The position numbers and the translations under genes were made by a program. The notes under the pieces are model-generated. The model worked only from the letters and a program-made list of their open reading frames with translations, made no database searches and was not told where the DNA came from. DNA of 64,000 nt from Ostreococcus lucimarinus (Eukaryota): NCBI GenBank assembly GCA_000092065.1, contig CP000584.1; one strand, written 5' to 3'. Positions 6,300 to 46,068 of the stretch are shown in pieces. The stretch's first letter is position 1. The number at the start of each line of letters is the position of its first letter.

Positions 6300-8093
6300 A
6301 TGGTGTCTTACGCGCGCGCGCACGATCGGCGCGCACCCGCGATCGGCGGCGCCGTCAAGCCCGTGCGCGAGGGCGAGCGCGAATACGGGCGCGTCGTCAC
6401 GCTCAAGGAAAGCTTTGGATTCATACGATGCGGGGCGAGAGTGGAGGACCCGTCGCAGGGCGATCGCCGCGCGAGAGGTGGACCGCCGCGCGAGGCGCAG
6501 GTGTTCTTCCACGCGAGCGAGTTCCATCGCGAGCTGGCGAACCGAGACAAACCGGCGCTCGATCCTGGGGACCTCGTGAGCTTTGTGTGCGGACCGAGCC
6601 CGAACAGGGACGGACTCAACGCGTTTGACGTTCAAAAGTGCGACGACGTGGACGTGGCGTGGCGCATGGTGAGCGAGAACGTCATCGGGGCGGTGTCGAG
6701 GACGTTGAGAGGGAAAATGAAACGCGACGCCTACGGCGGGCGCGTGGCGTACCAAGCGTACGACGAAGGCGACGCGAGAGCGTCAACGGAAGAAGAGTCA
6801 GAATCCCGACGCGATGCAGAATCGAAACTTGAGCAAGATGACGAGAGCGCCGTGGACATGGACGCCATGAAGGACGAAATCGAGTTTACCGGAGCCGATC
6901 TCGCCGAGGCGTGTCGGCTGTCAAAGCTCAGGCAAGGCGTCAAGGTGAAGTTCACGCTTTCGTTCGATCCGTACTCGCGCGCCATGCGCGCGTCAGATAT
7001 TCGCGAAGCGTTCCCACAGTCAGATAACTCGGCGGAAGCCGCCACGGGCGTGGACAGCAATGATTGGAATAGAGAAAAAGCCCCGCTGGCGGAGGACGAG
7101 TTTGGTGTGATTAGCATAATCAAGTCCAGTTATGGATTTATCAAGTGTTGTTCTAGACCGAAAGATTTGTTCTTTCATTTTAGTGAATTAAACGAAGACG
7201 TGGATGCGGCGCGAACGGGACAGGAGGTGAGTTTTCAGGTAACCACGGAGCCTAGGACTGGAAAAGTCGTCGCGGCCGGCGTGAGATTCGCGCCGAAAGG
7301 CAGCGCGGTTTTCGCGACGGTCGACGACAGACCGTGTCGTGGGGTTTGCACGACGAAGCTGATGTTCACAAAAGGGTTCCCTTCCAAGGACGGCGATCGA
7401 TCGACTCCTAAGGGCGTGGTAGAAGAAATGACGGGTCGAGATGGAGAAACGAAAAAATTTGCATTTGATCGTAGTGGGCTGCTCGACGCTCGGCAAAACC
7501 CTCGAGAAGGAGAATTGGTACAGTTTTGCGTGCAAACGGACAAGCGAACAAACGTCGCGTCGGCGTGCAAAGTGCAAATCATGCGTTTCACTGGCAAGGT
7601 GACGTCGACGAAGAGCGACGGCTTGTACGGTTTCGTCGAGCACGTCGATCAAGGTACGGGCGTTCAAGGCAAGGCTTTCGTGCACGGGGCTGAGGTGGAG
7701 GGTCAATCCAAGCTTAACGTCGGCGATGAGCTCGAGTATGCGCTTCAAGTTGGACGGAAAGCAGATGAATTTGCAGCCAAGCGCGTGAAAGTCGTCGTCG
7801 CGGCGCCCGTAGATCCAAACGCGGCGCCAAGTCGCCCTGATTCGCCTCGCGTCAACCGAGACAATCAGTTCTCGGGCTCGCAGTTCAAAATCACCAAGGG
7901 CCCCGACGGCACTCGCGGCTTTGAAATGGGGCGCGGAAAAGGTTTAGCGGAGAAAGCAGCCGCAAACTTTTCACAACTGAAGATTGAAGCTCAATCTTTT
8001 GTCCCTCTCCCTCTCGGCGGCGCCGAAAACGGCGACGAGAGTCCCGGCGACGCCGTGAGCGTCAAAGCGAGTGCGGTCGAGGACGCGCCGTAG
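6300..8093 (+). CDS. Multi-cold-shock-domain RNA-binding protein (CSDE1/UNR-like), with at least four CSD-like units
   Basis: ATG verified at 6300. Repeated CSD signatures: GRVVTLKESFGFIRC, GVISIIKSSYGFIKC...FFHFSEL, FTGKVTSTKSDGLYGFVEH...AFVHGAEV. Confidence 0.55.
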   Translation: MVSYARAHDRRAPAIGGAVKPVREGEREYGRVVTLKESFGFIRCGARVEDPSQGDRRARGGPPREAQVFFHASEFHRELANRDKPALDPGDLVSFVCGPSPNRDGLNAFDVQKCDDVDVAWRMVSENVIGAVSRTLRGKMKRDAYGGRVAYQAYDEGDARASTEEESESRRDAESKLEQDDESAVDMDAMKDEIEFTGADLAEACRLSKLRQGVKVKFTLSFDPYSRAMRASDIREAFPQSDNSAEAATGVDSNDWNREKAPLAEDEFGVISIIKSSYGFIKCCSRPKDLFFHFSELNEDVDAARTGQEVSFQVTTEPRTGKVVAAGVRFAPKGSAVFATVDDRPCRGVCTTKLMFTKGFPSKDGDRSTPKGVVEEMTGRDGETKKFAFDRSGLLDARQNPREGELVQFCVQTDKRTNVASACKVQIMRFTGKVTSTKSDGLYGFVEHVDQGTGVQGKAFVHGAEVEGQSKLNVGDELEYALQVGRKADEFAAKRVKVVVAAPVDPNAAPSRPDSPRVNRDNQFSGSQFKITKGPDGTRGFEMGRGKGLAEKAAANFSQLKIEAQSFVPLPLGGAENGDESPGDAVSVKASAVEDAP

Positions 8094-10034: not shown

Positions 10035-10169
10035 CGGGAGGACGTTTATATTCTAGCCCGCACGGACACGCTGGTGGAGACCCGAACGAGCTGCTAGCTG
10101 TGGTAGAATGAATTTCAAGAATGATGTATTGAACAGAATAGCTCTTTCCTAATGCGCGCACGCTGCCAA

Positions 10170-13100
10170 TTACTTGCCCATTTGAGCCGCGACTTCAGCG
10201 GCGAAGTCTTCGTTGCGCTTTTCGATGCCTTCACCGAGGTTGAAGCGTTCAAAGCGACGGATGGAGATCTTCTCACCAATCTCCGCGGTCGCAGTCTTCA
10301 CGAGATCTTCGACGGTCACGTCCGTGTTCTTGATGAAATCCTTGGTGATGAGCGCCTTCTCGTTCACCAACTTTTCGATGCGGCCGTTGACGATCTTTTC
10401 GCGAATGTTCTCCGGCTTGGACAAGAGGTCCTCCTTCTGCATCTCGATGTCGCGTTCGCGCGCAACCATTTCTTGGTCGGCGTCGGACGGGCTGATGTAC
10501 TCAACTTCCGGGCACGCAGCGACTTGCATGGCGAGATCTTGCGCGAGCTCCTTGAATCTGTCACCGCGAGCGACAAAGTCGGTCTCGCAGTTGAGCTCGA
10601 GCAAGACGCCGATGCGCGAGCCCGCATGGATGTAAGAGACGACGGCGCCCTCGGCGGCGATGCGGCTCGCCTTCTTGTCCGCAGACGCCATACCCTTCTT
10701 GCGCAACCACGCCGTGGCTTCCTCGACGCTGTTGTTGTTCTGCGCGAGCGCCTTCTTGCAATCCATCATACCGCAGCCGGTGGAGTCGCGAAGCTGCTTC
10801 ACGAGCTTGGCGTCAACCTTGACAGACGGCGCGTCTTCTTCCTTCTTCTCCTCTTTCTTTTCTTCTTTCGGTTCCGCAGCCGGAGCGGCAGCCTTCACTT
10901 GCGTTTGCGCGGCAACTTCAGCGGCGAAGTCGTCAACACGCTTCTCGATGCCTTCACCGAGGTTGAAGCGCGCGAAGCGACGGATGGAGATCTTCTCACC
11001 AATCTCCGCGGTCGCAGTCTTCACGAGATCTTCGACGGTCACGTCCGTGTTCTTGATGAAATCCTTGGTGATGAGCGCCTTCTCGTTCACCAACTTTTCG
11101 ATGCGGCCGTTGACGATCTTTTCGCGAATGTTCTCCGGCTTGGACAAGAGGTCCTCCTTCTGCATCTCGATGTCGCGTTCGCGCGCAACCATTTCTTGGT
11201 CGGCGTCGGACGGGCTGATGTACTCAACTTCCGGGCACGCAGCGACTTGCATGGCGAGATCTTGCGCGAGCTCCTTGAATCTGTCACCGCGAGCGACAAA
11301 GTCGGTCTCGCAGTTGAGCTCGAGCAAGACGCCGATGCGCGAGCCCGCGTGGATGTAAGAGACGACGGCGCCCTCGGCGGCGATGCGGCTCGCCTTCTTG
11401 TCCGCAGACGCCATACCCTTCTTGCGCAACCACGCCGTGGCTTCGGCGATGTCACCGTTGTTTTCTTGAAGCGCCTTCTTGCAATCCATCATACCGCAGC
11501 CGGTGGAGTCGCGAAGCTGCTTCACCGTGGCGGCGGAGATGCCGCCAGCGGCGGCGGCGGCGGGCTTCTTTTCTTCAACCGGAGCCGCGGCGGCGACGGC
11601 AGCCGGAGCGGCGGGAGCCGGAGCAGCCTGTAGATTTAAAGTAGGTGAGTAAAAGGGTTCCAAAATAAATAGCACTAGGTTATTACAACGGCGGATGAGA
11701 TAACTCAAGCCGCGACGTTGCTTATGAACTCACCTCTTTCGGAGCCTCAGCAGCGGGAGCGGCAGCCGGGGCGGAAGAGCCGGCCGGAAACATGTCCGCG
11801 GAGATACCCTTGCTCTTGAGCGCAAACTCCATCGCACTTACGGCACCGTCGAAAGCAGCGGACGCTTCAGCGTTCATTTCAGACAACTGCGTGAATCAAA
11901 GCGAAAGGGCGACGAATGGTCAGTTTCTCAACGCGGCGCGCTCTTCAAAAATAATCAGAAAGTGATACGACTCGAGAAAAACATGATTCGAGCGGTGGTG
12001 ACGCAATCGAACGAATACGTACATCGAGCTTTTCCTTCATGGAAAGCTTGACCTTGGCGCCATCGATGCCAATGATGGTGACGGTGACCTTTTCGCCAAC
12101 CTTGCAGAAGTCTTCAACCTTGACGTTGAAGTCGTCAGAGAGCTCGGTGACGTGCACCAAACCTTCGACACCCTCGGCAACTTGAACGAAAGCACCGAAT
12201 GGTTGAATGGACATGACTTCGCCCTCAACCTTCGTGCCCTTCTTCAAGCCCTTCACCGCTTGTGCCTTGGCGTCTTGAGCCTTTTTGTATTCTTGTCGCG
12301 CCGCAAACTTGGCTTCTTGCTCAGACTTGGCAGCCGCGAGCTCTTCCTCCGTCGGCGGCTTCTTCATCGTCAAAGAAATCTTGTTTTCCTTGATTTCCTT
12401 GATCCAAACCTTGACTTCTTGGTCTTCAGACACGACAGACGCGACGCTTTCGACGAAGCCATCTTGAAGTTCGGAGATGTGCACCAAGCCGTCGTTCTTG
12501 GCGCCGAAGTCCACAAAGCAACCGTAGTCTTGGATGCGCTTCACCTTACCGGAAAACTCGGCGCCGACAACCACCGCGGAATCTTCGACGGTGACGTTCT
12601 TGCGCGGGAATCGACGGCGTGGCTTCTTGTCCGAGTCCCCGACGGCGGATTCGGCGCCGGTGGCGGGTTCGCTCACGGCGGCGACAACGCCCGAGCGTCG
12701 CGCGACGACGACGCACGTTTGGGATCTGTTTCGCACGCCACGTTTTACCGTCAGTCGGTGTTTCGCGTTTTCGAAAATAATCGTCGTCGTCCAGTCGATC
12801 GACGCTCGCGCGCGAGGACGCTCCAAAGTCTCGCGCCCGTCGTCCTCGCTCTGGATAAAATGCACAGGGTCTCGACTGGGGTCAAAAGCGAGCCGCGCAT
12901 TCGACGCACCTCGACGACACGCGAGCGGCGTGCGCGGAAACGATCGAGCGAGCGGCGAACTATTCGAAAGAAATGATTCGTCTTCACGGTCAGTCCATCG
13001 CTCGCGCGCGTTCACCCGCGCGCGCTTCGCTTCGCGTCGGCGCCGTCCCGCCGCCGGATGACGTCGCGATAAGCCTCCGCCGTCGGTCGGGGTCGCCGTC

Positions 13101-13198
13101 GCCGTCCGCGCGGCGCGCGCCGTCCGCGCGGCGCGCGCGTCGCGAGCGCATCGAAAAATTAATCTACGCACCGCCGCGCTGCTTGAAGAGGTAGCCAT
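10170..13198 (-). CDS. PETs: Chloroplast PETs polyprotein gene: PSRP-7 (two S1 domains) fused to tandem duplicated EF-Ts. Three exons: complement 12023..13198, 11734..11886 and 10170..11627.
   Basis: S1 motifs: [21 protein letters not shown]...GLVHISEL and [20 protein letters not shown]...GLVHVTEL. Two EF-Ts units: [19 protein letters not shown]...[13 protein letters not shown] twice. The first ATG of the S1 ORF ([12 protein letters not shown], transit-peptide-like) was verified at 13196-13198. Both introns were inferred by hand and keep a single frame: GTACGT...CACGCAG and GTGAGT...TCTACAG. PSRP-7 and EF-Ts encoded as one polyprotein is established for Chlamydomonas and plants. Confidence 0.65.
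10190..11370. repeat. Intragenic direct duplication. Two copies of about 450 nt, offset by 717 bp, nearly identical in DNA, each encoding an EF-Ts module.
   Basis: The antisense ORFs 10213..10635 and 10930..11358 translate to identical peptides. The two EF-Ts protein copies are identical over about 170 aa. Confidence 0.85.
11628..11733 (-). other. Intron, 106 nt (gtgagttcat...atctacag), joining the linker exon to the EF-Ts exon of PETs
   Basis: Seen: canonical GTGAGT donor and pyrimidine-rich CAG acceptor. Locally AT-rich. Splicing restores a continuous frame into the EF-Ts ORF. Confidence 0.55.
11887..12022 (-). other. Intron, 136 nt (gtacgtattcg...ttgattcacgcag), between the S1-domain exon and the linker exon of PETs
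   Basis: Seen: GTACGT donor directly after the ...KEKLD codons, CACGCAG acceptor. The 153-nt middle exon (LSEMNAEAS...APKE) stays in frame. Inferred, not experimentally supported. Confidence 0.45.
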
Positions 13199-13488
13199 GA
13201 TCGCGTCGTGTACGAACGCGTCGGCGAATGACGCGCGTGCGGTGCGGTTCGCGGTTCGGTACGGCCTGACGGTCGTCCGGGTGTGCGCGGTGAAAAAAAC
13301 CACACCAACTGGGGGGGGGGTCGGTGGCGGGTGCGAACTCGCCATCGAGACACACGCCACCAGACGTGTTCGACGGGCGCCGGACGACGGACGACGGAGT
13401 TTTGCGGCAGCGTGCGCGTGCGCGCCGGCACACGGCGACGAACGACGCGCGCGTTCCGTGCGCGAAGACGGGAAGCGATCGAAACGCG

Positions 13489-33186: not shown

Positions 33187-34164
33187 CTACTTTCGCGTCA
33201 GCGTGATGCCGATATTCTCACGCAGTTCCGCTTCGCTGACCTCGTCGTAGTCCGTGGCTTGAATTTCGACCGCAATCCCCGACAATCGCGACTTGAAGAA
33301 GTCTTTCGTCGAGGCGTACAGCATTTTATTCTTCAATCGCGCCGAATCGGGATTCCACACGACGAAGACGAGCTTACTGAACTCGCAGTCGTCCGCGTTC
33401 ACGTACTTATAATCGTAAATCGCGTATCGGCATTCACTCTCCGGTAATGCGGCGATAAAATCGTCGTAATCTCCCGAGACTTCGCCCGTGGCTGCCGTCA
33501 ACACCGAACCTTCGTTCTCCTCGACTCGAAACGTTGCCCATTGCAAACCGTTCGAGCGCATCTTTACTTTGTTAAACACCGACAAGCAATCTTCAGCCAC
33601 GGCGACGCCGCTCATGCTCTTCGCCTCCACCGCCGGCGCGCTCTTCGCCGTCGACGCAGCCGCAGGCGGCGCGGGCGGCGGCGCGGGCGGCGGCGCGGGC
33701 GGCGCCGCCGGAGCTCGAGGCGCGGGCGGCGCCGCCTTGACGCTCGCATCCTCGCCGCTCGCCGACGCGCGTTCCCCGTCCTGTACCTTTAAAGCTCGCT
33801 CCGCGTCCTCAATCTTCGTCATGAACGTCGGTTGCGCCGCCACGCTCGTCTTCACGTTGAACTTTTGCGTCGTCTCTCGCAACACCGTCGCGTCTTCAGC
33901 CGCGTCGAATCCCCGTTCCCCATCTCCGCGCAGTGCCTCGTCCAACAACTTTTGCACGTGCGCGGAAACATCCGCGGTACCGTTCTTGATCGCTTCCAGC
34001 ATCGCTCGTCGCACGCACTCCACGTCGTGCGCGCGCAGAACGCCAGATTGGTTCGCCTGGGCGATCCTGTGGGTGAACAGAAACCATCCTTTCGCGGCGT
34101 CGTAATCGCCCTGCGCGATCAAGCCGCGGTCGAGGGCGGCCTTGACTTGTTCCAACGAGTCCAT
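33187..34164 (-). CDS. ADF-H (cofilin/ADF-like) domain protein with a roughly 180-aa N-terminal extension and a proline-rich (PPAPPPAPPPAPP) linker
   Basis: ATG verified at 34162-34164. The C-terminal 140 aa match the ADF-H fold: ...CRYAIYDY...KLVFVVWNPDSARLKNKMLYASTKDFFK. TGTAA sits just after the stop, with plus-strand ttaca at 33176-33180. Confidence 0.55.
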   Translation of the reverse strand: MDSLEQVKAALDRGLIAQGDYDAAKGWFLFTHRIAQANQSGVLRAHDVECVRRAMLEAIKNGTADVSAHVQKLLDEALRGDGERGFDAAEDATVLRETTQKFNVKTSVAAQPTFMTKIEDAERALKVQDGERASASGEDASVKAAPPAPRAPAAPPAPPPAPPPAPPAAASTAKSAPAVEAKSMSGVAVAEDCLSVFNKVKMRSNGLQWATFRVEENEGSVLTAATGEVSGDYDDFIAALPESECRYAIYDYKYVNADDCEFSKLVFVVWNPDSARLKNKMLYASTKDFFKSRLSGIAVEIQATDYDEVSEAELRENIGITLTRK

Positions 34165-34335
34165 GTTCGCGTCTCGTTCGCGGTCGCGGCGCGCGGTCGC
34201 GAACGCGCGACGACGTGTGACGCGCGGATGCGACGTCGTTTGAAAAGACTGTTGGCGTCGGTTGCGCCGAGGACGCGACGCGAAGGACGCGAGCGACGCG
34301 AATCGTCATGATAAATACAACGAACGAATGCGAGA

Positions 34336-35253
34336 CTAATACTGCGCGATACCGACGGCGATGAAATCGGCACACGCGTCTTCTAAGTCGTCTAAGACGG
34401 CGCGCGCGTCGTCGCGCGCGCCGAAATAGCCGCGGAGGTGCGCGGCGAACTCTAAAGCGACGGATTCGCGCGTCTTCGCCGCTTCTTCGCGACGCTTCGC
34501 GGGCGTCGACGGTGCCGCGGGCGTCGTCGAACCCTCGCCCGTCGATGGCGACGCACTCGGTTGTGATTCTAGTTTCATCGCCTTGACGACCGCGGATAAT
34601 TCCTCGCCCCCCCGCGGCGGCGGCTTGGCGACGAAGTTGTGCAATCGCCGCGCGCACATCAATACGCACTCGTTTTCGTACGCCTCGACGAGTGCGCGCG
34701 GGTCCGCGATCGTGCCCACGGCCGCACATCCAGTGCAATCCTCTACTAGCGCTAACAGTGCCGTGGCGTCGATGCGCGTCGCGTCTTGTGCGATTAACTT
34801 ATCGAAATCGATCGACGCTCGCAGCGCCTCGTTCCCGGCGTCCTCGAGCGCGCGCCACTCCGTCACAAATTTCCGACTCAACTGCGCCTCTTCCGCCGTC
34901 AAGTGCGCGCTGAGCGCGCGCATATCTCTCAACAACCCCACTCTCAGCGCTTCGCACCCCTTGACGCATCGCAACACCGCCTCTTTCGCGTCCTCCGCGC
35001 CGTTTCGCTTCGCCGACCGCGCCGCGGCCAGCGCCTTCTCGAGCTGTAATCTCAGCGCCGCGCACTCGCGTTGAAACCTCGCCTGCGTCGACGCCAACCG
35101 CTCCACGGCGTCGCTGCGATCATCGAGCCACGTCTCGACGATCGCGCTCGTCTTATCCGCCACCGCGATCGCCCGCGCGACGAATTCCATTTGCAACGAC
35201 CCCGCGTGTCGTCGCATCGCTCGCGCGCATTCGCGCGCCGCGCGCTCCGTCAT
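34336..35253 (-). CDS. Hypothetical alpha-helical, coiled-coil-like protein with no recognisable family
   Basis: ATG at 35251-35253 (MTERAAREC). The longer listed ORF to 35739 is low-complexity and would overlap the divergent ANK gene. Coding status is supported only by ORF length and codon bias. Confidence 0.25.
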   Translation of the reverse strand: MTERAARECARAMRRHAGSLQMEFVARAIAVADKTSAIVETWLDDRSDAVERLASTQARFQRECAALRLQLEKALAAARSAKRNGAEDAKEAVLRCVKGCEALRVGLLRDMRALSAHLTAEEAQLSRKFVTEWRALEDAGNEALRASIDFDKLIAQDATRIDATALLALVEDCTGCAAVGTIADPRALVEAYENECVLMCARRLHNFVAKPPPRGGEELSAVVKAMKLESQPSASPSTGEGSTTPAAPSTPAKRREEAAKTRESVALEFAAHLRGYFGARDDARAVLDDLEDACADFIAVGIAQY

Positions 35254-35435
35254 CCACGTCTCTCGCGCGTCCGCGACGCCCGCGCGCGACGCCGAACGGC
35301 GCGCGCGACGACGGCTCCGACGCCGAACGGCGCTGGACGCTGTGGCTCCGCGACGCCGTGTCGAGCGACAACGCGGCGTCGATCGCGTACCTGAGCGCGC
35401 TGAAGACGGCGAACGGACGAGGCGCGGTGTCGTGC

Positions 35436-36134
35436 ATGCGCGCGGCGCGGACGCGCGCGACGTTTGAGGCGCTGTGCGAGTGCCTGGCGGCGTGCGCGAC
35501 GCGCGAGGATAGAGCGACGACGGATTTCGTGGACGAGTACACCGGGTACGACGTCGCGTGTTGGGCGGCGAAACGCGGCGCCGGGGACAGCATTCGCGCG
35601 CTGTGTCGAGGCGCGGCGTCGACGTCGGCGTCGGCGTCGACGTCGGCGTCGGCGGCGATGTGCGCCGTCGTCGGCGCCTCGCAAGCGCTCGCGCCGACGC
35701 AGCTGAGCAAGGCGAGTCTCGGGAACGGAAGTCGTTCACCGGACGACGCGGACGTGATCACGGAAACGCGCGCGCGATATGAGGACGCGTTGTCCGCGGC
35801 GCTATCGCTTCGTCCCGGCGAAATCGATGCGATCGACGCCGTCACGGGTTGGACGCCTCTGACGTTTGCGTCTCGCCGCGCGCCGACGCTCGGCACGACG
35901 TTTATGAGCATATTGCTCGAAGCCGGCGCCGACGTCAACGCGCCAGACGCGCGCGGAATGACGCCTCTCATGCACGCAGCGGCCGGCGATTCGCTCGACG
36001 CCGCGCGTCTGCTCCGCTCGGCGCGTCGAGCCGACGTCTCGCCTCGCGACCGCGACGGCTTCTCCGCCGCCATGCACGCCGCGTACCGCAATCCATCGAA
36101 CGTCGCGTTATTAGCCATTCTAGCCGATTCTTAG
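35436..36134 (+). CDS. Ankyrin-repeat protein, about 3 ANK repeats
   Basis: First ATG at 35436. The listed start at 35358 is GTG. ANK consensus stretches: GWTPLTFAS...LLEAGADVNAPDARGMTPLMHAAAGDSLDAARLL... Confidence 0.35.
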   Translation: MRAARTRATFEALCECLAACATREDRATTDFVDEYTGYDVACWAAKRGAGDSIRALCRGAASTSASASTSASAAMCAVVGASQALAPTQLSKASLGNGSRSPDDADVITETRARYEDALSAALSLRPGEIDAIDAVTGWTPLTFASRRAPTLGTTFMSILLEAGADVNAPDARGMTPLMHAAAGDSLDAARLLRSARRADVSPRDRDGFSAAMHAAYRNPSNVALLAILADS

Positions 36135-36336
36135 TCCACGTAGTCCGCCGATTTTCGGGCGATTCGCTCGGTCGTCGAAGAGTCGGTCCGCCGCGCGCGT
36201 CCCGGGCGCGGGTCCCGGGCGCGTCCCGGGCGGGTCCCAGGCGTCGTCATCGTCCGATCGCCTCACACCGCGTCGCGTCGACGCGCTCGACGACGCGCGC
36301 TCGATCGTTGAACGCGGTCGACGTCACCGCGATTCG

Positions 36337-37245
36337 ATGGCCGCGAGCGCGTCCCGCGCGCTTCGCGCGGCGCCGCGCGCGCCGCGCGCGTCCCGCGCCC
36401 GCCGTAACCCTGAACGCGGCGCCGCGTCTCGCGCCGTGGCGACGCGCGCGAGCGTGTCCGAGGCGTTCAAGGCGGTGCTGGACGATGGCAAGCGAGCGTT
36501 CATTCCGTTCATCTGCGCGGGCGATCCCGATCTGGAGAGCACGAAGAAGGCGCTGAAGATTTTGGACGACGCGGGCGCGGATGTCATCGAGCTCGGCGTG
36601 CCGTACAGCGACCCGTTGGCGGACGGACCGGTGATTCAGGCGGCGGCGACGCGGGCGTTGGAGAACGGGGCGACGTTGAATAAGGTGATCGATTTAGTGC
36701 GAGAGATGACGCCGCAGATTAAGGCGCCGATCGTGATGTTTACGTATTACAATCCGATTTATCAACGCGGAGTGGATAAATTTTGCGCCGACATCGCCGC
36801 GGCTGGGGCGAAGGGATTGCTCGTGCCGGATATTCCGTTGGAGGAGACGTACGATGTGAGCGAGATCGCGAGTAAGCACGGCATAGAGCTCGTTCTGCTT
36901 TCCACGCCCACGACGCCGGTGGAACGGGCGAAGAAGATTGCGCAGGCGACGAAGGGGTTCGTCTACCTCGTCTCCGTCACGGGCGTCACCGGCGTGCAAT
37001 CGAACGTGGCGACGCGCGTGGAGCAATTGGTGGAGGAGTTGAGAAGCGTGACGGATAAGCCCATCGCGGTCGGGTTCGGGGTGAGCGAGGCAAAGCACGC
37101 GAAGCAAATCGTGGATTGGGGCGCCGACGGCGTCATCGTCGGTTCCGCGCTCGTGCGCGCGCTCGGCGAAGCCAAGACGCCCGAGGAAGGTCTCGCCGCG
37201 CTCAAGGCCAAGGCTGAGGAAATCCGCGGTGGCGCCACGCTCTGA
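36337..37245 (+). CDS. TSA: Tryptophan synthase alpha chain, plastid-targeted
   Basis: ATG verified at 36337. A transit-peptide-like N-terminus precedes the conserved TrpA core: FIPFICAGDPDLEST...ADVIELGVPYSDPLADGPVIQ...MFTYYNPI...GLLVPDIPLEE...GFVYLVSVTGVTG. Confidence 0.85.
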   Translation: MAASASRALRAAPRAPRASRARRNPERGAASRAVATRASVSEAFKAVLDDGKRAFIPFICAGDPDLESTKKALKILDDAGADVIELGVPYSDPLADGPVIQAAATRALENGATLNKVIDLVREMTPQIKAPIVMFTYYNPIYQRGVDKFCADIAAAGAKGLLVPDIPLEETYDVSEIASKHGIELVLLSTPTTPVERAKKIAQATKGFVYLVSVTGVTGVQSNVATRVEQLVEELRSVTDKPIAVGFGVSEAKHAKQIVDWGADGVIVGSALVRALGEAKTPEEGLAALKAKAEEIRGGATL

Positions 37246-37386
37246 GAAAGCGTCTTCACGCGGCGCGAGAGCGACGAACGACCTAGGTAGCGGTGGACAT
37301 TTTAATCTATTAACAACGCTCGAGCGCGCCCGCGAAGCGACCCCGCGAAGCGCGTTCAAAGCTCCGAGCCTCAGACGCGCGTCCGA

Positions 37387-37788
37387 CTAAGAAATCTTCT
37401 CCAGATACGCCGCAATCTTTCTGTCGTTCTCCGACAGCGCGCTCGGATCTCGCAACGCCTTGTCCCCGCTCTCCCACCGCAGGTAATCACCAAAATTTTT
37501 CTTGTAGTAGTCGTCCAACCGCTCTTGCTTTCGTTCCTCGCGCTTCTCCTCGCTCCGCGCCCGCAGGCGCTCGACGAACTCGGAGTTGGTCTCATTCGCC
37601 TCGAGCGCCACGCTCGCGGGCGCGGTCGAGGTGAGCGCGACGACGGTCGCCGCGAGCGCGCCGATCGCGACCCGCGCGGGGTGTCGTCGCTCGCGCGACT
37701 CGGCGCTGGACGCCGCGCGACGCCGCGCGGACGCCGACGTCGCGGGATCGACGCGCGCGGCGCGCGGCGCGCGAACGAGCGCGGGCAT
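37387..37788 (-). CDS. Small hypothetical protein with a bipartite-looking presequence (basic region plus hydrophobic AxA-like segment); possibly thylakoid-lumenal
   Basis: First ATG at 37786-37788 (MPALVRAP). The listed start at 37872 is GTG. A hydrophobic stretch VAIGALAATVVALTSTAPASVA is followed by a charged roughly 75-aa domain. No family recognised. Confidence 0.25.
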   Translation of the reverse strand: MPALVRAPRAARVDPATSASARRRAASSAESRERRHPARVAIGALAATVVALTSTAPASVALEANETNSEFVERLRARSEEKREERKQERLDDYYKKNFGDYLRWESGDKALRDPSALSENDRKIAAYLEKIS

Positions 37789-37998
37789 CGGCGCGCGAAT
37801 TCGGGCGCTCGAGAATTTCGCGACGGCGCGTGACGCGTTCGAGCGCGGCGCGCGCGCGTCGCGCGACGCCACCAGGGTTTAAAGCGTCTCCGTTCGTCTA
37901 GCCTCGGGGGTTAAAAATTGCAACACCGACGACGAGGCGCGCCTCGTCGTCGTTTCGTTTCGCGTAATCTTCGTCGTCATCGTCGCCCTCGTCGTCGT

Positions 37999-38587
37999 CT
38001 ACGCGCCCATGTTCAGCGACATCAACTCGGCGAGCGTCTTCGTCTCGCGCAGGCGCGTGAGCTCGCCGCGGTGCGCTCGCTCCGTCTTACGAATCGACAC
38101 CGCGCCCCAGAGAAACGACGCGATCTGCGCGCGTTTCGACGCATCGTTCACCGTCAGTCGTCGCGAATGATTCGCCCGATTCGCCCGATTCGCCCCTCGT
38201 CGTCTCCCGTCGCCCCTCGCGTCGTCTCTTCGTAAACCTCGCTCGATCTCGCGCGCGGGGTCGCGTTCGCGTTCGCGTCACGATTCGCCCCGCCCGTCGC
38301 TTTCGTCGTCGCATCGCGCGAATCGCCATTCGTCCTCCCCTTCGCGCGTCTTTCGCGGTCGCGTTTCGATTCGCCCTCGACGCGTCGTTCGTTCGCCTCG
38401 CCCCACGCACCAGACACAGCAAAAACACCGTCGGCCCGTACCCCCACTTGCTCTCTCCCGGCGGCGGGTCCACGGCGTACACGACGCCGTCGATGATGAA
38501 CATCATCAGCGCCCACGCCGTCATGAACCACACGTTCGCGTTGCGTCCGATGAACGTGCTCTTCTCGAGCTCTTCCTTCGTCACCAT
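37999..38587 (-). CDS. Putative DPM2-like small two-TM ER protein (dolichol-phosphate mannosyltransferase regulatory subunit). Two exons: complement 38411..38587 and 37999..38124.
   Basis: ATG verified at 38585-38587, followed by good GC3 codon bias (MVTKEELEKSTFIGRNANVWFMTAWALMMFIIDGVVYAV...). FMTAWALMMFIID resembles the DPM2 motif YYTAWVILLPFID. A GTGCGT donor sits after ...FLLCL at 38410. A CGCGCAG acceptor at 38125 yields ...IASFLWGAVSIRKTER... and a TAG at 37999-38001. The spliced product is 100 aa. The intron was inferred by hand. Unspliced read-through (166 aa) cannot be excluded. Confidence 0.35.
38125..38410 (-). other. Putative 286-nt intron of the DPM2-like gene (GTGCGT...CGCGCAG)
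   Basis: Inferred from the donor and acceptor motifs and from DPM2-like protein length. The intron has no in-frame stop, so support is moderate. Confidence 0.3.
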
Positions 38588-38879
38588 GACGTGCGATGTC
38601 GTCGGCGCGCAGTGCCGGGTCGACGGCGGTCGACCTTTCGCGGCGGTCGGGGGTGAGGTGCGCGATCCGGGACGGGGATTTTTATGAAAACGACAGCCCG
38701 ATCGGTGTTTTGAGAACACCGTCGATCGCGACGCCGTCGATCGCGCGACGCCGTCGATCGCGATCGCGTCGATCGAGATCGCGCGATCGCGATCGATCGC
38801 GCGTCGACGCCGGCGTCGACGTCCATCCACGCGGCCGCCCATCCATTCGTCGGCGCGACGATTCGACGAGCGCGCGTCG

Positions 38880-39370
38880 CACACGTCGACGACGACGTCG
38901 ACGACGACGGCGATGCCGACGGCGACGACGACGACGGCGTCGGCGACGGACGGGACGGCGGCGAAACGACGCGAGGGGGCGAAGACGACGAAGAAGACGA
39001 CGGGGAAGGCGACGACGACGGGGCAGGCGACGACGGCGCGTCGCGACGACGACGCGACGACGACGGCGACGACGACGACGGCGACGGCGACGGCGACGAC
39101 GACGAAGAAGAAGACGCGAAACGGCGCGAAGAGGGACGGTGGCGTCGGTGGGGACGCGGTGAAGACGGATTGGGCGAACGACGCGATGGGCGACGATCCG
39201 CGCGTCGAGGCGAAGGCGAAGGCGAACGCGCCGGCGAAGAACGGGAAGAAGACGCGCGGGAAGACGACGGCGACGGCGGCGACGACGACGCCGAAGAAGA
39301 AGGAGGCGAACGGGACGACGACGACGACGACGACGACGGGGATGGTGAAGAAGGCGCGAACGCCGCGAGC
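38880..39370. repeat. GAC/GGC/GAAG-rich low-complexity trinucleotide tract encoding the Thr/Ala/Lys-rich N-terminus of the KH protein
   Basis: Seen directly: runs of gacgacgacggcgacg. Confidence 0.7.
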
Positions 39371-40394
39371 GGAGCGAGGGGCGCCTCGCGCGGCGGCGCC
39401 GGCGGCGAAATCGGCGACGCCGACGCGCGCGCCCGCGGTGGGACCGCCGATGACGATCACGCGGGGGGAGAGCGTGCAGAAGTGGTCGAACTCGACCACG
39501 CGCGCGGCTTTGCGCGTGGAGGCGTCGATTCGGGATTGGATTCGCGCCGACGGCGGGCGCGAGCTCGCGCGCGAGCTGCAAGAGGCGCTCTCCTGCGGCG
39601 ACGGTCACGTGACGATGCAGGTGTGCGAAGAAAGCGGGTCAGGCGCGCTTTTCGTGGGCTTACACTGCGGCGAAGCAAAGTTTGCGCACGCCCTGCAACG
39701 CGTGCACGCTCTGGTGGAAGTGAAGCTCGACGACTGCGTGCGCATTCGTCGACGCACGGGCGTGGCGGATATGCTGGAAAACGAACGAATGAAAATCCAG
39801 GCGGAAATCGACGCCGGACTTCGTTGCGAATTCACGCTCGGGTACAAGGCGATGCAAGACTTGCTGCTCGACGGCGGCGATAAGCTGAATCAAGTCAAGG
39901 AGGTGTGCGACGTCGAGCGCGTCGTCGTCGATCCTCGAAAGCGCACGATTCGCATCGTCGGCGCGGACGCCGCCGAAGTGTCTCGAGCGAGAGACATGCT
40001 CGAAGTCGCGTACGAAAGCATCGAAGACGTGCCAGAGTTGGCGTTGCGCATGATCATCGGTAAAGGTGGCGCCAAAGTGAACGACATTCAGCAGCGTACC
40101 GGAGCAAACATCAAGGTGGACTGGGACAAAAGCGCCGTCTTCATTCGCGGACCGCCGTCGGCGGTCAAGTCGGCGATGATTCTCGTCAAGTCGTGCATCA
40201 AGACGTACGAAGTGGAACATGTCGAAGTGACGTACGACCAACTCGACGAAGTTCGCGGCGAGCTCGCGCGTTTGGACATGGAATGGGGCGGAAGCCCGGT
40301 GCACTACGTCCAAGGCGGTCGCGGCGGCGGTCGCGGCGGCGGTCGCGGCGGCGGTCGCGGTCGTCGAAACGATCGTTCCTCCACGGCGGCGTAA
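38913..40394 (+). CDS. RNA-binding protein with KH domain(s) and a C-terminal RGG box. Long T/A/K-rich low-complexity N-terminus.
   Basis: ATG verified at 38913. KH GXXG loop in LRMIIGKGGAKVNDIQQRTGANIKVD. C-terminal GGRGGGRGGGRGGGRGRR. The N-terminal 150 aa are encoded by GAC/GGC-rich trinucleotide repeats. Confidence 0.5.
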   Translation: MPTATTTTASATDGTAAKRREGAKTTKKTTGKATTTGQATTARRDDDATTTATTTTATATATTTKKKTRNGAKRDGGVGGDAVKTDWANDAMGDDPRVEAKAKANAPAKNGKKTRGKTTATAATTTPKKKEANGTTTTTTTTGMVKKARTPRAERGAPRAAAPAAKSATPTRAPAVGPPMTITRGESVQKWSNSTTRAALRVEASIRDWIRADGGRELARELQEALSCGDGHVTMQVCEESGSGALFVGLHCGEAKFAHALQRVHALVEVKLDDCVRIRRRTGVADMLENERMKIQAEIDAGLRCEFTLGYKAMQDLLLDGGDKLNQVKEVCDVERVVVDPRKRTIRIVGADAAEVSRARDMLEVAYESIEDVPELALRMIIGKGGAKVNDIQQRTGANIKVDWDKSAVFIRGPPSAVKSAMILVKSCIKTYEVEHVEVTYDQLDEVRGELARLDMEWGGSPVHYVQGGRGGGRGGGRGGGRGRRNDRSSTAA

Positions 40395-40410
40395 CAAATA
40401 TCATTGTGTT

Positions 40411-40424
40411 ACCCTAAACCCTAA
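40411..40424. repeat. Interstitial telomere-like motif, two tandem CCCTAAA units (ccctaaaccctaaa), in a 3' intergenic region
   Basis: Seen directly, 17 nt after the KH-protein stop codon. It is identical to the terminal telomere repeat unit. Confidence 0.6.
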
Positions 40425-40477
40425 ATATCCGGTTATTGTGTAATCTATGCCTTATTAATGCCCGCTAAAGTCTAAAT

Positions 40478-41170
40478 CTAAGCCAGAATCGTCGCCCCGA
40501 CACCCTTGCGAAGCCGCAAAGCCGCGCGCCTCTTGCGCTTATAGTCTTCCCGCCACGCGTCTCTCTCTTCGTGCCATCGCTCCAACATCTCCTTTTCCTC
40601 GGGCGCCTTCCACGCGCGCGCGATGGCATCGATACCTGAACTTTCATCGATCCCCAAAACCGCCGCCGCGCTCACCTTTTCGCGCACATCGCGAACGACT
40701 TTCCGACGTTTTTTCCGTCTCGCCGGCGCTTCGTTCGCGGCGTCGCGCTTCGTGACCCCATCTCGGTCCCGCGCGCCATCGCCGCGCCGCGCGGTCTCGT
40801 CTCCCTCCCTCATCATCGTCGTCGTCGTCGTCGTCATCCGTGCGCCATCTTCTCCCTTCCGCGCATCCGAACCGCCGAACAACGACCACGTCGCCGTCTC
40901 CGGCTCGAACCCGCGCGCGAAGTCAAACCCGTCCGCCGTCGTCACGTGTTTGTCGCTTCGCGCGTACGACGCGCGAATCGCGTCGACGTCCACATCGCTC
41001 GCGGCGTCATCGCTCGCGTCCGCGTCGCCGTCCGCGTCTCGATCGCGCGTCCGAACGAGCGCCTTCACGTCGCCGCCGCCGACGAAGTGTTTTCCAATGT
41101 CCACCGCGCGCAGCGGTTTGCTCGTCCTCGCGGGCGCCTTGGACGCGCGCGCGGATTTCGGGGCGCGCAT
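40478..41170 (-). CDS. Basic/acidic low-complexity protein, possibly a nucleolar or rRNA-processing factor; family uncertain
   Basis: ATG verified at 41168-41170. The KKRRK-type basic C-terminal half fits a nuclear localisation signal. No confident domain. Confidence 0.3.
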   Translation of the reverse strand: MRAPKSARASKAPARTSKPLRAVDIGKHFVGGGDVKALVRTRDRDADGDADASDDAASDVDVDAIRASYARSDKHVTTADGFDFARGFEPETATWSLFGGSDARKGEDGARMTTTTTTMMREGDETARRGDGARDRDGVTKRDAANEAPARRKKRRKVVRDVREKVSAAAVLGIDESSGIDAIARAWKAPEEKEMLERWHEERDAWREDYKRKRRAALRLRKGVGATILA

Positions 41171-41304
41171 GACGCGCGCGCGTCGCTCGCGCGCGCGCGC
41201 CGGTCGCCGTCGCGTCGCGTCGCGTCGCTTCGCGTCGCGCGGTTCGGAGTGACGCGGTCGGGCCGCGACGGCGTCACTCGGCGACGCGCGAGCGACGCGC
41301 GAAA

Positions 41305-43485
41305 ATGTCCGAGGCGTCGATCGCGCGCGCGTTTCTCGAGGCGAGCGACGCCGCGGCGGCGCTCGCGGCGCGCGCGCGACGGCGCGTGGACGCGCCCGCG
41401 GGCGGCGCGAGCGACGGTTCGCCCGGCTCGGTCAGCGCGTCGATGGACGCCGAGGTAGACGCGTACGTCGCGCGAGTCAAGGCGCACGCGAAACTCAAGG
41501 CGTGCGTGGACGCGATGACGCACGCGCAGCGGTGGGAAGACGCGAACGAGGCGTTGAAGGCGCTGGAGATTGATTTGGCGAGGCGAATTGAATCGACTTT
41601 TAAAGCGTTGGCGCGGGGGACGCGAGAGCTCGAGGACGCGCTCGTGGACGCCAAGGCGACGCCGGACGTGTTCATTGATTTCACGCCGCGCGGTACGGTC
41701 GAGCGCGGTCGACGCGGGCGGGAGATTTGGAACGAAAATATTCTCGCGGCGACGCGAGAGCCGCGAGACGAAAATAGCGACGAAGCGATGGAGGCGTCGA
41801 GCGACGACGCGATCGAGGCCTTCGGAGGCGATGAAAACGACGGCATGGAACGTAAACTCACAGATGATGAAGCTGTGGAGCATGAACCGTCGCCTAGGTT
41901 GGGTCGTCGGCTCTCGGCCGAGGACGCCGCGATGCGAATCCAAGCCGTTTTTCGTGGGTTCCGCTCTCGTTCCAGGACAAACATCGAAGCCAGGCGTGAA
42001 CTCGAGCATCTCGGGATGATTGCGAGCGCGAAGCACTCACAAAGAAAGTTCAACGATTTTAGCGAGTTAAAGCGGCGGAACGAGTTGCGTTCACGCAGCG
42101 CAAAGCAGCTCGCGGATCTCGAGGCAAACATTCGGCGGGATTTGCTCTCTTCGCGACGCGAGAGCATCAAAGACGAAATTAAAGCGGTGCGAGAGGCGCA
42201 AGCGCTCGATATCATTATCACAGACGATAACGCGCATGCCACAGCGATCACCTCGAACGACGAGGACGTCCCCACGCGATTGTGTCGCGCGGTGGAAAAG
42301 TATCGTCGGCGCTGGGCCGATTGCTCGCAGGTGAGTTTGAACGCCTTCGACATCGATCACGTGCGATCGAGTGTGTTGCAGGAAGTCACGAATGCGCTGA
42401 GAGCTGAAATCGAGGACGAAGCTCGCGCGCTGGAGGCGCAAAATAAAAAGACGAAAGTTGGAAAGAAGAAGAAGGGTTCGGCTGAGGCGCCTGGCGCGAA
42501 AAAGTCATCCTCGACGAAGAGTAAAGCGGCGCCGTCGAAGAAATCCAAAGGCGCAATCAAGCAACAAAGACAGCGAGGGATGGAAACGATCGATCCTGAT
42601 CTCTTAAAAACATTCGCGAGATTGCAGATGGTCGAGCCGACGCCACTCGATGGCCGTCTTGATGACTATCTCGGCACCGGCGGCGAACGGCGTAAAGGAC
42701 ACGAAGATTCCACAATGCTCGAGGTCGCTCAGCTTCGCCATGTTCTCGCGGTGTCGGTGGCGATTCCACTCACATCGCAACGTGTGCATGAGCTCGCGCC
42801 GCACATGAAGTGCGTGCTCTTGGAGGGATTAGCGGCGAGCGGCAAGTCGTACCTCGCGCGTCTGTGCGCCGCCGAATCCGGATGCGCGCTGTTCAATCTC
42901 TCGCCCGATCGACTCGCCCGCGCCGAGGCGAGCGGAGAAAACCCCAAATCACTGATGAAATACGTCTTCCAAGCCGCGAAGACGATCGCCCCGAGCGTGA
43001 TTTTCATTCGAGATGTCGACGCGTACTTTCCCGAGAAGAGCAAAAAAACGAAAGCAACCGACGCGGAGTGCGCTCGCAAGCTTCGAAAAGACTTGATGAA
43101 GGAAATCAAAGCGCTGAAACCAGGCTCGCGCGTCACTGTCGTATGTACGCGAACGATCGCGAACGACGTGGCATCGTCGAGCGACCCAAAAGGTTTCGAA
43201 AAGATGTTCAATCTTCGCCTCGAGGCGCCGCCGCCGGATTACGGCGGTCGTCGGCGAATCCTGGCCAAAGCCTTGGAGGCGATATCGGTCGATCCGGTCG
43301 ATCCAACGCGTCGACGCACGGGCGACGACGCGAGCGCCACGCTTGCGTGCTACGCCACCGCGGGCATGACCACCGGCGCGCTCTTCGCGCTCGTTCAAAA
43401 CGCCCGCGACGACGTGAGATCTTCCCGAGATCCTTGGCGAGCGCTCCTTCGCCGCGTCGAATCCGACGCCGCGTCGAAACATTGA
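41305..43485 (+). CDS. IQ motif plus C-terminal AAA ATPase domain protein (IQCA1/DRC11-like axonemal nexin-dynein regulatory complex subunit)
   Basis: ATG verified at 41305. IQ motif AAMRIQAVFRGFRSRSR. A P-loop-like GLAASGKS lies in ...CVLLEGLAASGKSYLARLCAAESGCALFNL...VIFIRDVDAYF, then a second region with a Walker B-like IFIRDVD. This architecture matches IQCA1 by established knowledge. Confidence 0.45.
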   Translation: MSEASIARAFLEASDAAAALAARARRRVDAPAGGASDGSPGSVSASMDAEVDAYVARVKAHAKLKACVDAMTHAQRWEDANEALKALEIDLARRIESTFKALARGTRELEDALVDAKATPDVFIDFTPRGTVERGRRGREIWNENILAATREPRDENSDEAMEASSDDAIEAFGGDENDGMERKLTDDEAVEHEPSPRLGRRLSAEDAAMRIQAVFRGFRSRSRTNIEARRELEHLGMIASAKHSQRKFNDFSELKRRNELRSRSAKQLADLEANIRRDLLSSRRESIKDEIKAVREAQALDIIITDDNAHATAITSNDEDVPTRLCRAVEKYRRRWADCSQVSLNAFDIDHVRSSVLQEVTNALRAEIEDEARALEAQNKKTKVGKKKKGSAEAPGAKKSSSTKSKAAPSKKSKGAIKQQRQRGMETIDPDLLKTFARLQMVEPTPLDGRLDDYLGTGGERRKGHEDSTMLEVAQLRHVLAVSVAIPLTSQRVHELAPHMKCVLLEGLAASGKSYLARLCAAESGCALFNLSPDRLARAEASGENPKSLMKYVFQAAKTIAPSVIFIRDVDAYFPEKSKKTKATDAECARKLRKDLMKEIKALKPGSRVTVVCTRTIANDVASSSDPKGFEKMFNLRLEAPPPDYGGRRRILAKALEAISVDPVDPTRRRTGDDASATLACYATAGMTTGALFALVQNARDDVRSSRDPWRALLRRVESDAASKH

Positions 43486-43671: not shown

Positions 43672-44082
43672 TCACACCCACGGCTGATCGCGATCCTCCA
43701 ATAACTCTTCAATCACCACCGACGCGATCGTCGCCACGCACGCCACGCCCAGCGCCGTCCCCACGCTCTGTCCTCGCCAGTGAAAGAACCCCGCGCACAG
43801 CACCGCGCCCGTCCCGCTCGACAACCAATCGTACGACGCCATCTTCCGCATCGTCGCGTTCGCATCGAACGCCTTCGCCCCGTCGCTCCCGCGCGCGTTC
43901 GCATCGAGCGTCTTCGCTCGATCTTCGCCCTCGCGCGCGTCCCTCTCGCCCGCGCGCGCGTCGTCATCGCGTCGCCGCGCCGAGATACGCATCGTCCCCG
44001 CGCGACGCGATCGCGTCGTCGCGCGCGCCGACGCGACCGCGCGCGGCGCGCGCACCGCGCGCGCGGGCGTCGACAACATCAT
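43672..44082 (-). CDS. Small hypothetical protein with an N-terminal presequence-like region and a C-terminal glycine-zipper-like TM segment
   Basis: Tandem ATGs at 44077-44082 (MMLSTPARA). The C-terminal hydrophobic part is SSGTGAVLCAGFFHWRGQSVGTALGVACVATIASVV. Weak. Confidence 0.2.
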   Translation of the reverse strand: MMLSTPARAVRAPRAVASARATTRSRRAGTMRISARRRDDDARAGERDAREGEDRAKTLDANARGSDGAKAFDANATMRKMASYDWLSSGTGAVLCAGFFHWRGQSVGTALGVACVATIASVVIEELLEDRDQPWV

Positions 44083-44348
44083 TCGAGCGCTCGTTCGGCG
44101 CGCGCGTCGTTCGGCGGCTCGCGCGCGCGTTCGGCGTCGCGAAGTGCGCGCGCGATTCGTAACCGTCCGTCCCGAGGTGACTTTTTCGTCGCGACGTCCG
44201 GGGAACGAATCGAAACGCGCGCCGCACACGCGCGCGATCGCGCGATTGCGCGCGTCGCGAGCGGGCGTCGATGACGAAAAATGCGACGCGCCCGGCGACG
44301 ACGCGATCGCGCGACGTGACGCGTCGCGCGACGCGCGCGCGGCGCGCG

Positions 44349-45092
44349 ATGATGACGGTCGCGATGACGGTCGCGGTGGCGGTGATGACGCGCGGCGCGC
44401 GCGGGGACGGCGACGAGGGCGCGAAGAGGGGCGCGATAGAGATGCGAGCGGATGATTTAGAAGACTACCTCGCGCGGGCGCCGATCGAGGTGACGATCGC
44501 GACGAAGTTTTACGCGCCTTGGTGCGGGCACTGCAAGACGCTGGCGCCGCTGTGGGACGACTTCGCCCGACGCGGGGCGAACGAAAACATCATCGCGCTG
44601 TCCGTCGACGCCAGTGGGGCGAACGCGAAGGCACTGAACGCGAAGTTCAACGTTCAGGGGTTCCCGACGCTGTTTTTCTTCAAGGGCGGCGCGGCGTACG
44701 AGTACTCGGGCAAGCGCGCCGTCGACGACCTCGTCGACTTCGCGCGCTCGCCCTCCAAATTCGCCCTCGGTCGCGCCTACGCCGTCGACGACGCCACCAA
44801 CGCCTTGGTTTTCGCCAAACCACCGTTCCGCGTGCTCCTCCGCGACGTCTCTCGCGGCATCGCTCGCGATTACGCCCGCGTCGTCGGCAAACATCCCCAG
44901 CTCCTCGTCGCCGTCTTCGTCCTCGGCGTCTGGCTCGGCGCGTGCGCCGTCGGCGCCGCTTTCTTCTTCACCGGCGACTACGCCGCCGCGAAGCAATGGC
45001 GCGAGTTCATCGCTCGCAACGCCGACGCCATTCGCGCCGCGAACGCCGCCGCCGCCGCCGACGACGCCTCCAAAGGCAAAAAAACCAACTAG
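44349..45092 (+). CDS. Thioredoxin-related transmembrane protein (PDI/TMX-like): signal peptide, one thioredoxin domain with a CGHC active site, and a C-terminal TM helix
   Basis: FYAPWCGHCKTLAPLWDDFA...NVQGFPTLFFFKGG. C-terminal LLVAVFVLGVWLGACAVGAAFFF. The start was chosen at the MM preceding the hydrophobic signal; the listed ATG at 44271 is the alternative. Confidence 0.6.
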   Translation: MMTVAMTVAVAVMTRGARGDGDEGAKRGAIEMRADDLEDYLARAPIEVTIATKFYAPWCGHCKTLAPLWDDFARRGANENIIALSVDASGANAKALNAKFNVQGFPTLFFFKGGAAYEYSGKRAVDDLVDFARSPSKFALGRAYAVDDATNALVFAKPPFRVLLRDVSRGIARDYARVVGKHPQLLVAVFVLGVWLGACAVGAAFFFTGDYAAAKQWREFIARNADAIRAANAAAAADDASKGKKTN

Positions 45093-46068
45093 TCAGCAGT
45101 GCAATCCAATCGCCCCGGGCGAAAATATCTGTTTCGCGCCGGACGTATCTTTTTCCCGGGCGCGGAACGGCGCCGTGAAACCTCTGATGGCGTTCGCGCG
45201 CGCTCGAATATGCGACTATGACCCCCCGATCGCGATAAATGCGCGCCCGCGTAAGCGCGCCTCCGTCGCCCGCGCCCGCGCGGTTGGTCGCGCGCGGCCG
45301 CGTCGACGCGAGCCCGCGACGCGCGCGACGCGACGTCCGCATCGGCGCGAGCGCACGTCCGCGCGACGCCGCGCGAATCGACGCGCGCCGTCGCGTCGGA
45401 CCGCGCGGCGTCGCGACCGCGCGCGCACTCTTCGGCGCCACCGCGGCATCGGTTGAAAACAATTCGCGATACGGCGCGACGACGATCGGCGTCGAATTGC
45501 GAGGTGCGCGAGATGCGAAAGCGCGCGCGCGCGACGACGATCGATGCGACGATATTTATGCGCGCGAACGCGCGGTCGACGGCGCGCGAACGCGCGATGG
45601 GACGATGCGCGGCGCGATCGAATGGGACGGCTCCGGCGCCGCGGATGCGAGCCGGAGGTGACGCGCGATCGCTCGAGGCGGTGCGACGACGGCGCGCGAC
45701 CGCGGGCGCGGGGCGCCGAGGGCGGCGATGGGGGAGGGAATATGCGGGGAACGGCGCGGCGCGCGGGGGGGGGGCGCGCGGACGCTGAGACGCGCGCGGA
45801 CGGCGGCGGGACGCGCGCGCGCGGGACGCGCGGGAGATATCGCGCGCGCGCGACGCGCGGGACGGGGTCCGGAGAGAGCGGGCGTCGCGCGCCGACGCGG
45901 TGCGCGGTGATGGATGGTCGATGAGTGCGCTCGCGCGCGCGTCGTGCGTCGCGGGCGGCGATGGCGCGAAGAACGAGGCGAAGAGAGACTGACGAAGGCG
46001 CGACGCGGACAGGGTGGCTCGCCGCAGAAGCGAAGTTCGCGGAATTCCGACGGTGAGACGCGCGTGCG

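Follow-up and report, generated by a model that had tools for sequence, protein, structure and literature searches.

According to the portions of the literature that deal with it (PMC8343077, PMC12156993, citing Beligni et al. 2004), PETs, the chloroplast PSRP-7/EF-Ts polyprotein, is a chloroplast protein encoded by one nuclear gene and composed of two S1 and two EF-Ts domains. A related arrangement has been described in Euglena gracilis and E. longa, in which a plastid-targeted protein carries two EF-Ts monomers parted by a linker (PMC6242988). Here we analyzed a 64,000-nucleotide stretch of the Ostreococcus lucimarinus genome (GenBank assembly GCA_000092065.1, contig CP000584.1; hereafter the window, numbered from its first letter), which bears a long direct repeat of the EF-Ts module on the minus strand, in the last exon of a nuclear PETs gene. 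Judged from its domains and homologues, this gene is the O. lucimarinus CCE9901 orthologue of PETs, and it shares with the PETs of Chlamydomonas reinhardtii, Arabidopsis (EMB2726) and rice (OsAL7) the architecture of two S1 domains in the N-terminal part and two EF-Ts modules in the C-terminal part. We propose that it is an ancient two-module gene in which the cores of the modules are kept near-identical by recurrent intragenic gene conversion, and we put the probability of this reading at about 0.9.

The locus differs from its described relatives in how alike the two modules are. In land-plant PETs the modules are 70–80% identical at the amino-acid level and group by position, whereas in Ostreococcus they are 94% identical overall, with a core in which 469 of 470 nt agree. 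The Euglena polyprotein is represented among our hits by a homologue (P0064) that also has two modules, but these are 74% identical to each other and no S1-domain match was found in P0064. Near-identity within a genome, divergence between species and mosaic tracts are likewise seen in bacterial tufA/tufB and in fungal ribosomal-protein paralogues; gene conversion among duplicated translational GTPase genes has been discussed (PMC1780047), and parallel concerted evolution is known from ribosomal protein genes (PMC6993855). The partners in cases of the tufA/tufB type, however, are separate genes, while in PETs donor and acceptor are the halves of one open reading frame (ORF), 723 bp apart, and a crossover between them would alter how many modules an essential protein has. 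The searchable literature yielded no account of concerted evolution or gene conversion of EF-Ts/PETs modules, or of such processes in Ostreococcus. The locus is a new example of a known process, the gene conversion of translation genes, in a known gene family.

A 723-bp direct repeat within one exon

The long direct repeat was confirmed in the window, and chance was ruled out as its cause. In a self-scan of positions 10100–10900, identity reached 82.6% at an offset of 723 and stayed at 20–33% at all other offsets from 700 to 739, and the repeat finder returned the pair 10181–10480/10904–11203 (96% identity) at the same spacing. Copy A extends over 10181–10802 and copy B over 10904–11525, with an offset of 723 bp, or 241 codons. 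An earlier note on this DNA had recognized a near-identical EF-Ts module repeated inside one gene, and this proved to be real; the offset of 717 bp that it gave was wrong, and its limits of 10190–11370 fall short of the real span (10181–11525) and leave copy B incomplete. The antisense ORFs that it described as identical are also present, as the plus-strand ORFs at 10213–10635 and 10660–11358 have their C-terminal approximately 139 residues in common save one, a trivial consequence of the identity of the underlying DNA.

Base-by-base comparison of 10252–10721 in module 2 with 10975–11444 in module 1 (module nt 97–566, both on the minus strand) revealed a single mismatch in 470 nt. This mismatch, at 10626/11349, is a synonymous difference between the His codons CAT and CAC. 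The synonymous distance (dS) between the two copies is 0.03 in the core. The longest perfect run is 374 nt (10252–10625). A second, shorter identical block of 56 nt (10747–10802, partner 11470–11525) is set apart from the long tract by a patch of 25 nt with 14 mismatches (10722–10746 in module 2, partner 11445–11469 in module 1), and the approximately 70 nt at the module end (10181–10251 in copy A, 10904–10974 in copy B) contain 12 mismatches. Over their full length the two modules differ at 38 of 639 nt. When 38 differences were placed at random, a run of at least 374 nt arose in none of 200,000 permutations, the largest being 219 nt, and the outcome was the same with third codon positions alone, which likewise yielded no 374-nt run. 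The divergent patch, which appears to be resistant to conversion, encodes a UBA-like helix/loop that reads AQNNNSVEE in module 2 and QENNGDIAE in module 1. As seen in a segment tree and in the module translations, its sequence is position-specific and conserved in sister clades.

Age of the duplication and concerted evolution of the modules

Homologues were surveyed as the 120 best hits, and the full-length ones were checked for module number. Two modules were present in all full-length homologues checked, and two-module proteins were found in Mamiellophyceae, Picochlorum, Chlorella, Pedinophyceae, Closterium, moss, angiosperms, Euglena and chlorarachniophytes; the land-plant hits include entries named 'Polyprotein of EF-Ts, chloroplastic' with 56–61% identity. 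The duplication must therefore be old and, as far as these homologues tell, the tandem arrangement is ancient and common to the green lineage and to algae with secondary green plastids. This contradicts the recent duplication that the earlier note had considered, and single-module orthologues, which it regarded as a sign of mis-assembly, did not occur among the full-length homologues of the species set checked. The statement that the modules are diverged in plants and Chlamydomonas holds for plants; Chlamydomonas was not among the hits. Most green algae, on the other hand, show within-gene homogenization like that in Ostreococcus, the two modules being 85–99.5% identical in many algal homologues that are only 60–72% identical to the query. 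Between the modules of the Mantoniella protein identity is 90%, and between those of the Bathycoccus protein 97%. In a neighbor-joining tree of the modules, module 1 (m1) pairs with module 2 (m2) by species in almost all green algae, whereas in angiosperms and chlorarachniophytes each module groups with its positional counterparts (m1–m1, m2–m2).

The DNA of nine related loci was fetched (L labels below; WIN is the gene in the window), and Nei–Gojobori distances were calculated for the core (codons 36–190) and for an N-terminal segment (the first 35 codons). Within the gene, core dS was 0–0.03 in WIN, L001, L004, L011, L005, L006 and L008, as opposed to 0.41–1.18 between species. The flanks of the core tell of a much older split: in WIN the first 35 codons of the two modules differ with a dS of 0.39 and a nonsynonymous distance (dN) of 0.24, dN in this segment is lower between orthologous modules (m1–m1, m2–m2) than between paralogous ones, and the C-terminal flank has a within-gene dS of 0.56. 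Neighbor-joining trees of the segments are discordant in the same manner. For module nt 1–96, the m1 and the m2 sequences of the Ostreococcus-like clades fall into separate groups, which dates the duplication before the splits between Ostreococcus clades, while nt 97–566 group strictly by species. In the former tree m1 of L006 is placed among m2 sequences, which indicates an extra conversion in that lineage.

The extent of the homogenized tract also varies between lineages, its 3′ end lying at module nt 522–566 in WIN, L001 and L004, at 596 in L006, at 626 in L008 and at 637 in L011 and L005. Two Mamiellophyceae contigs from close relatives, L008 and L009 (gene at 1501–2985 in each), are particularly informative. 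The cores of the two modules differ at 0 of 465 nt in L008 and at 41 of 465 nt in L009, where m1 alone differs at 30 sites between nt 179 and 396 and m2 alone at 11 sites between nt 333 and 523. Since these one-copy differences fall in two blocks, and the copies of L008 are identical, L008 seems to have been overwritten in both directions. On the shortest time scale, a strain represented by three metagenome contigs (L001–L003, 99.45% identical) differs from the window at nine sites, and one of these single-nucleotide polymorphisms (SNPs) is found in both copies at the homologous site, 10305 and 11028; the mismatch within the tract of the window, at 10626, is not present in this strain. Cumulatively, homogenized synonymous sites, old position-specific flanks, discordant segment trees and lineage-specific tract ends strongly support recurrent intragenic gene conversion between the modules, on the strength of the sequence comparisons. 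The gene conversion suggested in the earlier note is thereby strongly supported, and the comparison with orthologues of related species that it proposed separates its two suggestions, as the two modules are old, which speaks against recent duplication, and the cores group by species, which speaks for conversion.

We hypothesize that the two direct repeats, which lie 723 bp from each other within the same exon, recombine repeatedly by non-reciprocal homologous exchange, probably in the form of intragenic ectopic gene conversion without crossover during double-strand-break repair. The center of one module would be repeatedly overwritten by that of the other, in O. lucimarinus and independently in most green algae, and as a result the two cores evolve in concert, alike at 469 of 470 nt within the gene and yet separated by a core dS of 0.4–1.2 between species. 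The module ends, the linkers and the 25-nt UBA-like patch lie outside the usual tract and keep their old position-specific sequence, with the dense mismatches of the patch and the linkers presumably acting as the usual tract limits. As a separate observation, GC content at third codon positions (GC3) is 0.83 in the converted core vs. 0.77 and 0.65 in the unconverted module ends, and this slightly higher GC3 may be compatible with GC-biased gene conversion.

Copy number in public assemblies and alternative explanations

The two-module ORF of the window (501 residues, P0121) is found in exactly this form on 57 public contigs, one of them 931,964 bp long, and the 723-bp structure recurs on the three metagenome contigs L001–L003. 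In at least 24 metagenome contigs from this species, with unchanged synteny, the ORF instead has 260 residues (501 minus 241), equivalent to an exact 723-bp deletion. Contigs of this one-module kind came from the JGI metagenomes 3300048001, 3300048447, 3300007263, 3300006617 and 3300048507. The one-module gene, at 2501–3283 in L012–L015 and at 1570–2352 in L016, maps to 10181–11525 of the window; it has m1-type diagnostic sites up to nt 96 and m2-type sites from nt 523, with the junction inside the identical tract. A sister clade shows the same pattern, with forms of 199 and 439 residues. The one-module contigs are most simply read as products of short-read assembly in which a perfect repeat exceeding 400 nt collapsed, the alternative being a real deletion allele produced by unequal crossover. 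The earlier note had called the repeat a hotspot for assembly errors, and as regards the hazard of collapse the one-module contigs agree with it, unless they represent a real deletion allele; the window itself, which 57 concordant contigs match, does not appear to be affected. A further deviating form is a metatranscriptome protein (P0001, MERC, 519 residues) from a relative approximately 68% identical to the query, which has one complete EF-Ts module between two incomplete ones; it represents a variant with three modules or else a repeat that was expanded during assembly.

Of the alternatives to gene conversion, the one that survives best, improbable as we consider it, invokes cycles of unequal crossing-over in which the gene passes from two modules to one or three and back. 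The hybrid one-module contigs and the fragment P0001 with its parts of three modules could be intermediates of such cycles, and identity does reach the module end in L011 and L005. Unequal crossing-over would, however, homogenize the whole side of the junction including the linker, whereas most lineages have an internal, patchy tract with position-specific sequence at both ends, and the comparison of L008 with L009 shows two separate internal tracts with opposite directions. Unequal-crossover cycles may still act as a contributor alongside recurrent conversion.

Still less credence can be given to an assembly artefact in which the reference expanded a single module into two. It could draw on the single-module contigs of O. 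lucimarinus, with their exact 723-bp deletion and a junction in the identical tract, but such hybrids are what short-read collapse of a perfect repeat of 426–470 nt is expected to produce. The two copies in the window, with 38 differences, position-specific ends and a distinct linker, are both anchored by unique sequence. With the identical two-module ORF present on 57 public contigs, and near-identical ORFs on more, the window is unlikely to be mis-assembled; moreover, every related species has two modules, and so do transcript-derived proteins.

It is equally hard to credit that the cores are held identical without any exchange of DNA, by extreme purifying selection at the codon or mRNA level. 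In plants the gene is strongly expressed and indispensable (PMC8343077, PMC12156993), and the high GC3 of the core would fit such selection. Core synonymous sites nevertheless vary between species to the extent given above, in both copies together, L009 tolerates 41 core differences where its close relative L008 has none, and the tract ends vary by lineage. Finally, the idea that one EF-Ts module was duplicated in tandem only recently in the O. lucimarinus lineage, leaving copies too young to have diverged, can be dismissed as highly improbable, for although one difference in a 470-nt tract looks young when taken alone, two modules are found in all full-length homologues checked, including those of land plants, euglenids and chlorarachniophytes, the flanks are old on both sides (N-terminal dS 0.39, C-terminal dS 0.56), and the m1 and m2 clades of nt 1–96 remain separate across Ostreococcus clades.

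Several points weigh against recurrent intragenic conversion, or limit how far it can be carried. For tracts that reach the module end, as in L011 and L005, conversion in the strict sense and unequal-crossover cycles are formally inseparable. For conversion after the two sampled strains separated, there is just one shared polymorphism, and three other SNPs in the tract are single-copy. The copy number in CCE9901 is taken from its assembly, with which independent assemblies agree. The orthologous loci are metagenome contigs, in which assembly could partly homogenize repeats; keeping this in mind, we note that these loci differ in a species-specific way as expected, and that the transcript-derived Mantoniella protein and the Bathycoccus protein agree with them. 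The benefit that identical cores might confer, discussed below, is conjectural, and the AlphaFold2 model, with a predicted template modelling score (pTM) of 0.54, gives no firm arrangement of the two modules.

With regard to annotation, an essential chloroplast translation gene bears a perfect internal repeat of 374–470 nt, which short-read assemblies collapse or break, and the public metagenome data for O. lucimarinus commonly contain single-module and fragment ORFs. Gene models, copy-number calls and variant calls at PETs consequently need long reads. With regard to evolution, PETs offers a clean multi-lineage case of conversion that has long operated between two parts of the same ORF. The 5′ boundary recurs and the 3′ boundaries vary, and from such a case one could estimate the rate of ectopic conversion in picoeukaryotes and the length of its tracts. 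In phylogenetics, the module tree should not be read as a record of repeated independent duplications.

Module structure and gene model

The alignment of one module with the 196-residue EF-Ts of Thermus thermophilus (1AIP_C, E = 1.7e-47) runs from end to end, residues 6–195 of 1AIP_C being paired with module residues 5–195. The module is thus of the short Thermus/cyanobacterial type, with a UBA-like N-domain and a dimerization core and without the duplicated core subdomains of the E. coli protein. The AlphaFold2 model of the two-module region has a mean predicted local distance difference test score (pLDDT) of 73.8, and the confidence per module is acceptable. Each modelled core fits the 'dimerization domain' of Thermus EF-Ts (1TFE) with a template modelling score of 0.82 and a root-mean-square deviation of 2.7 Å, whereas E. 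coli EF-Ts matches retrieved with Foldseek span both modules only at 13–14 Å. The pTM of the model is 0.54, and it does not fix the position of one module against the other.

Short EF-Ts of the Thermus type functions as a homodimer. In the Thermus protein (1AIP, 1TFE) there is one module per chain and the dimer forms between chains, whereas in Ostreococcus PETs two modules are fused in one chain, and it is conceivable that they pair in cis. Selection for identical cores would then preserve a symmetric, self-complementary dimer interface. A bolder extension of this idea, which we regard as doubtful, is that concerted evolution is maintained by selection across most green algae, with the identical cores forming a pseudo-homodimer interface that loads two EF-Tu, the unconverted UBA-like patch providing functional asymmetry, and real one-module alleles perhaps segregating in natural Ostreococcus.

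All exons of the predicted gene lie on the minus strand. The last PETs exon (10170–11627; AG acceptor and frame checked) encodes an Ala/Pro-rich linker, module 1, an inter-module linker, module 2 and the stop codon (10170–10172). According to phmmer boundaries, module 1 occupies 10902–11540 and consists of 213 codons for an N-terminal UBA-like EF-Tu-binding domain and a core/dimerization domain; module 2 (10179–10817, from phmmer and Pfam) also has 213 codons and is followed by Gly-Lys-stop. The inter-module linker (10818–10901, 28 codons) is first Ala/Pro-rich and then Lys/Glu-rich, and is 74% identical to the linker before module 1 (11566–11604). A middle exon of 51 codons (11734–11886), between GT..AG introns at 11887–12022 and 11628–11733, joins the EF-Ts part to the S1 part, which is the PSRP-7 portion with two S1 RNA-binding domains (12023–12720, upstream limit provisional). 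Pfam matches comprise S1 (PF00575) twice in the N-terminal part (E = 7.4e-26), and EF_TS (PF00889) twice (E = 6.2e-56) together with two EF-Ts_N/UBA-like domains in the C-terminal part. The three exons join in frame through the GT..AG introns and so place the S1 and EF-Ts parts in one predicted ORF; the spliced model, middle exon included, is colinear with the transcript-derived protein of Mantoniella antarctica (896 residues) and with the protein of Bathycoccus prasinos (831 residues).

The linkers before module 2 (10855–10893), before module 1 (11566–11604) and at the end of the middle exon (11729–11767) are 67–74% alike and constitute repeat family D2, which suggests that the original duplicated unit probably included the linker. 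On the minus strand of 12700–13300, the transit-peptide-like stretch that precedes the first S1 domain has no in-frame ATG in its vicinity, and a further short exon upstream of the S1 exon is therefore likely. A YggT/CCB3-like gene in divergent orientation begins near 13324 of the plus strand. On the other side of PETs, the adjoining 597-residue ORF (6300–8093) is an exact match to XP_001417116.1 of O. lucimarinus CCE9901.

Antisense to the EF-Ts exon, the plus strand contains a 493-residue ORF (10152–11633) and several shorter ones. We do not consider these to be genes, for which there is no support, although no coding search was made; they are a by-product of a GC-rich, codon-biased coding strand. 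Elsewhere in the window, GC content is 0.65–0.67 over 34000–42000 and reaches a local maximum of 0.716 at 44001–46000, as compared with approximately 0.59 for much of the window.

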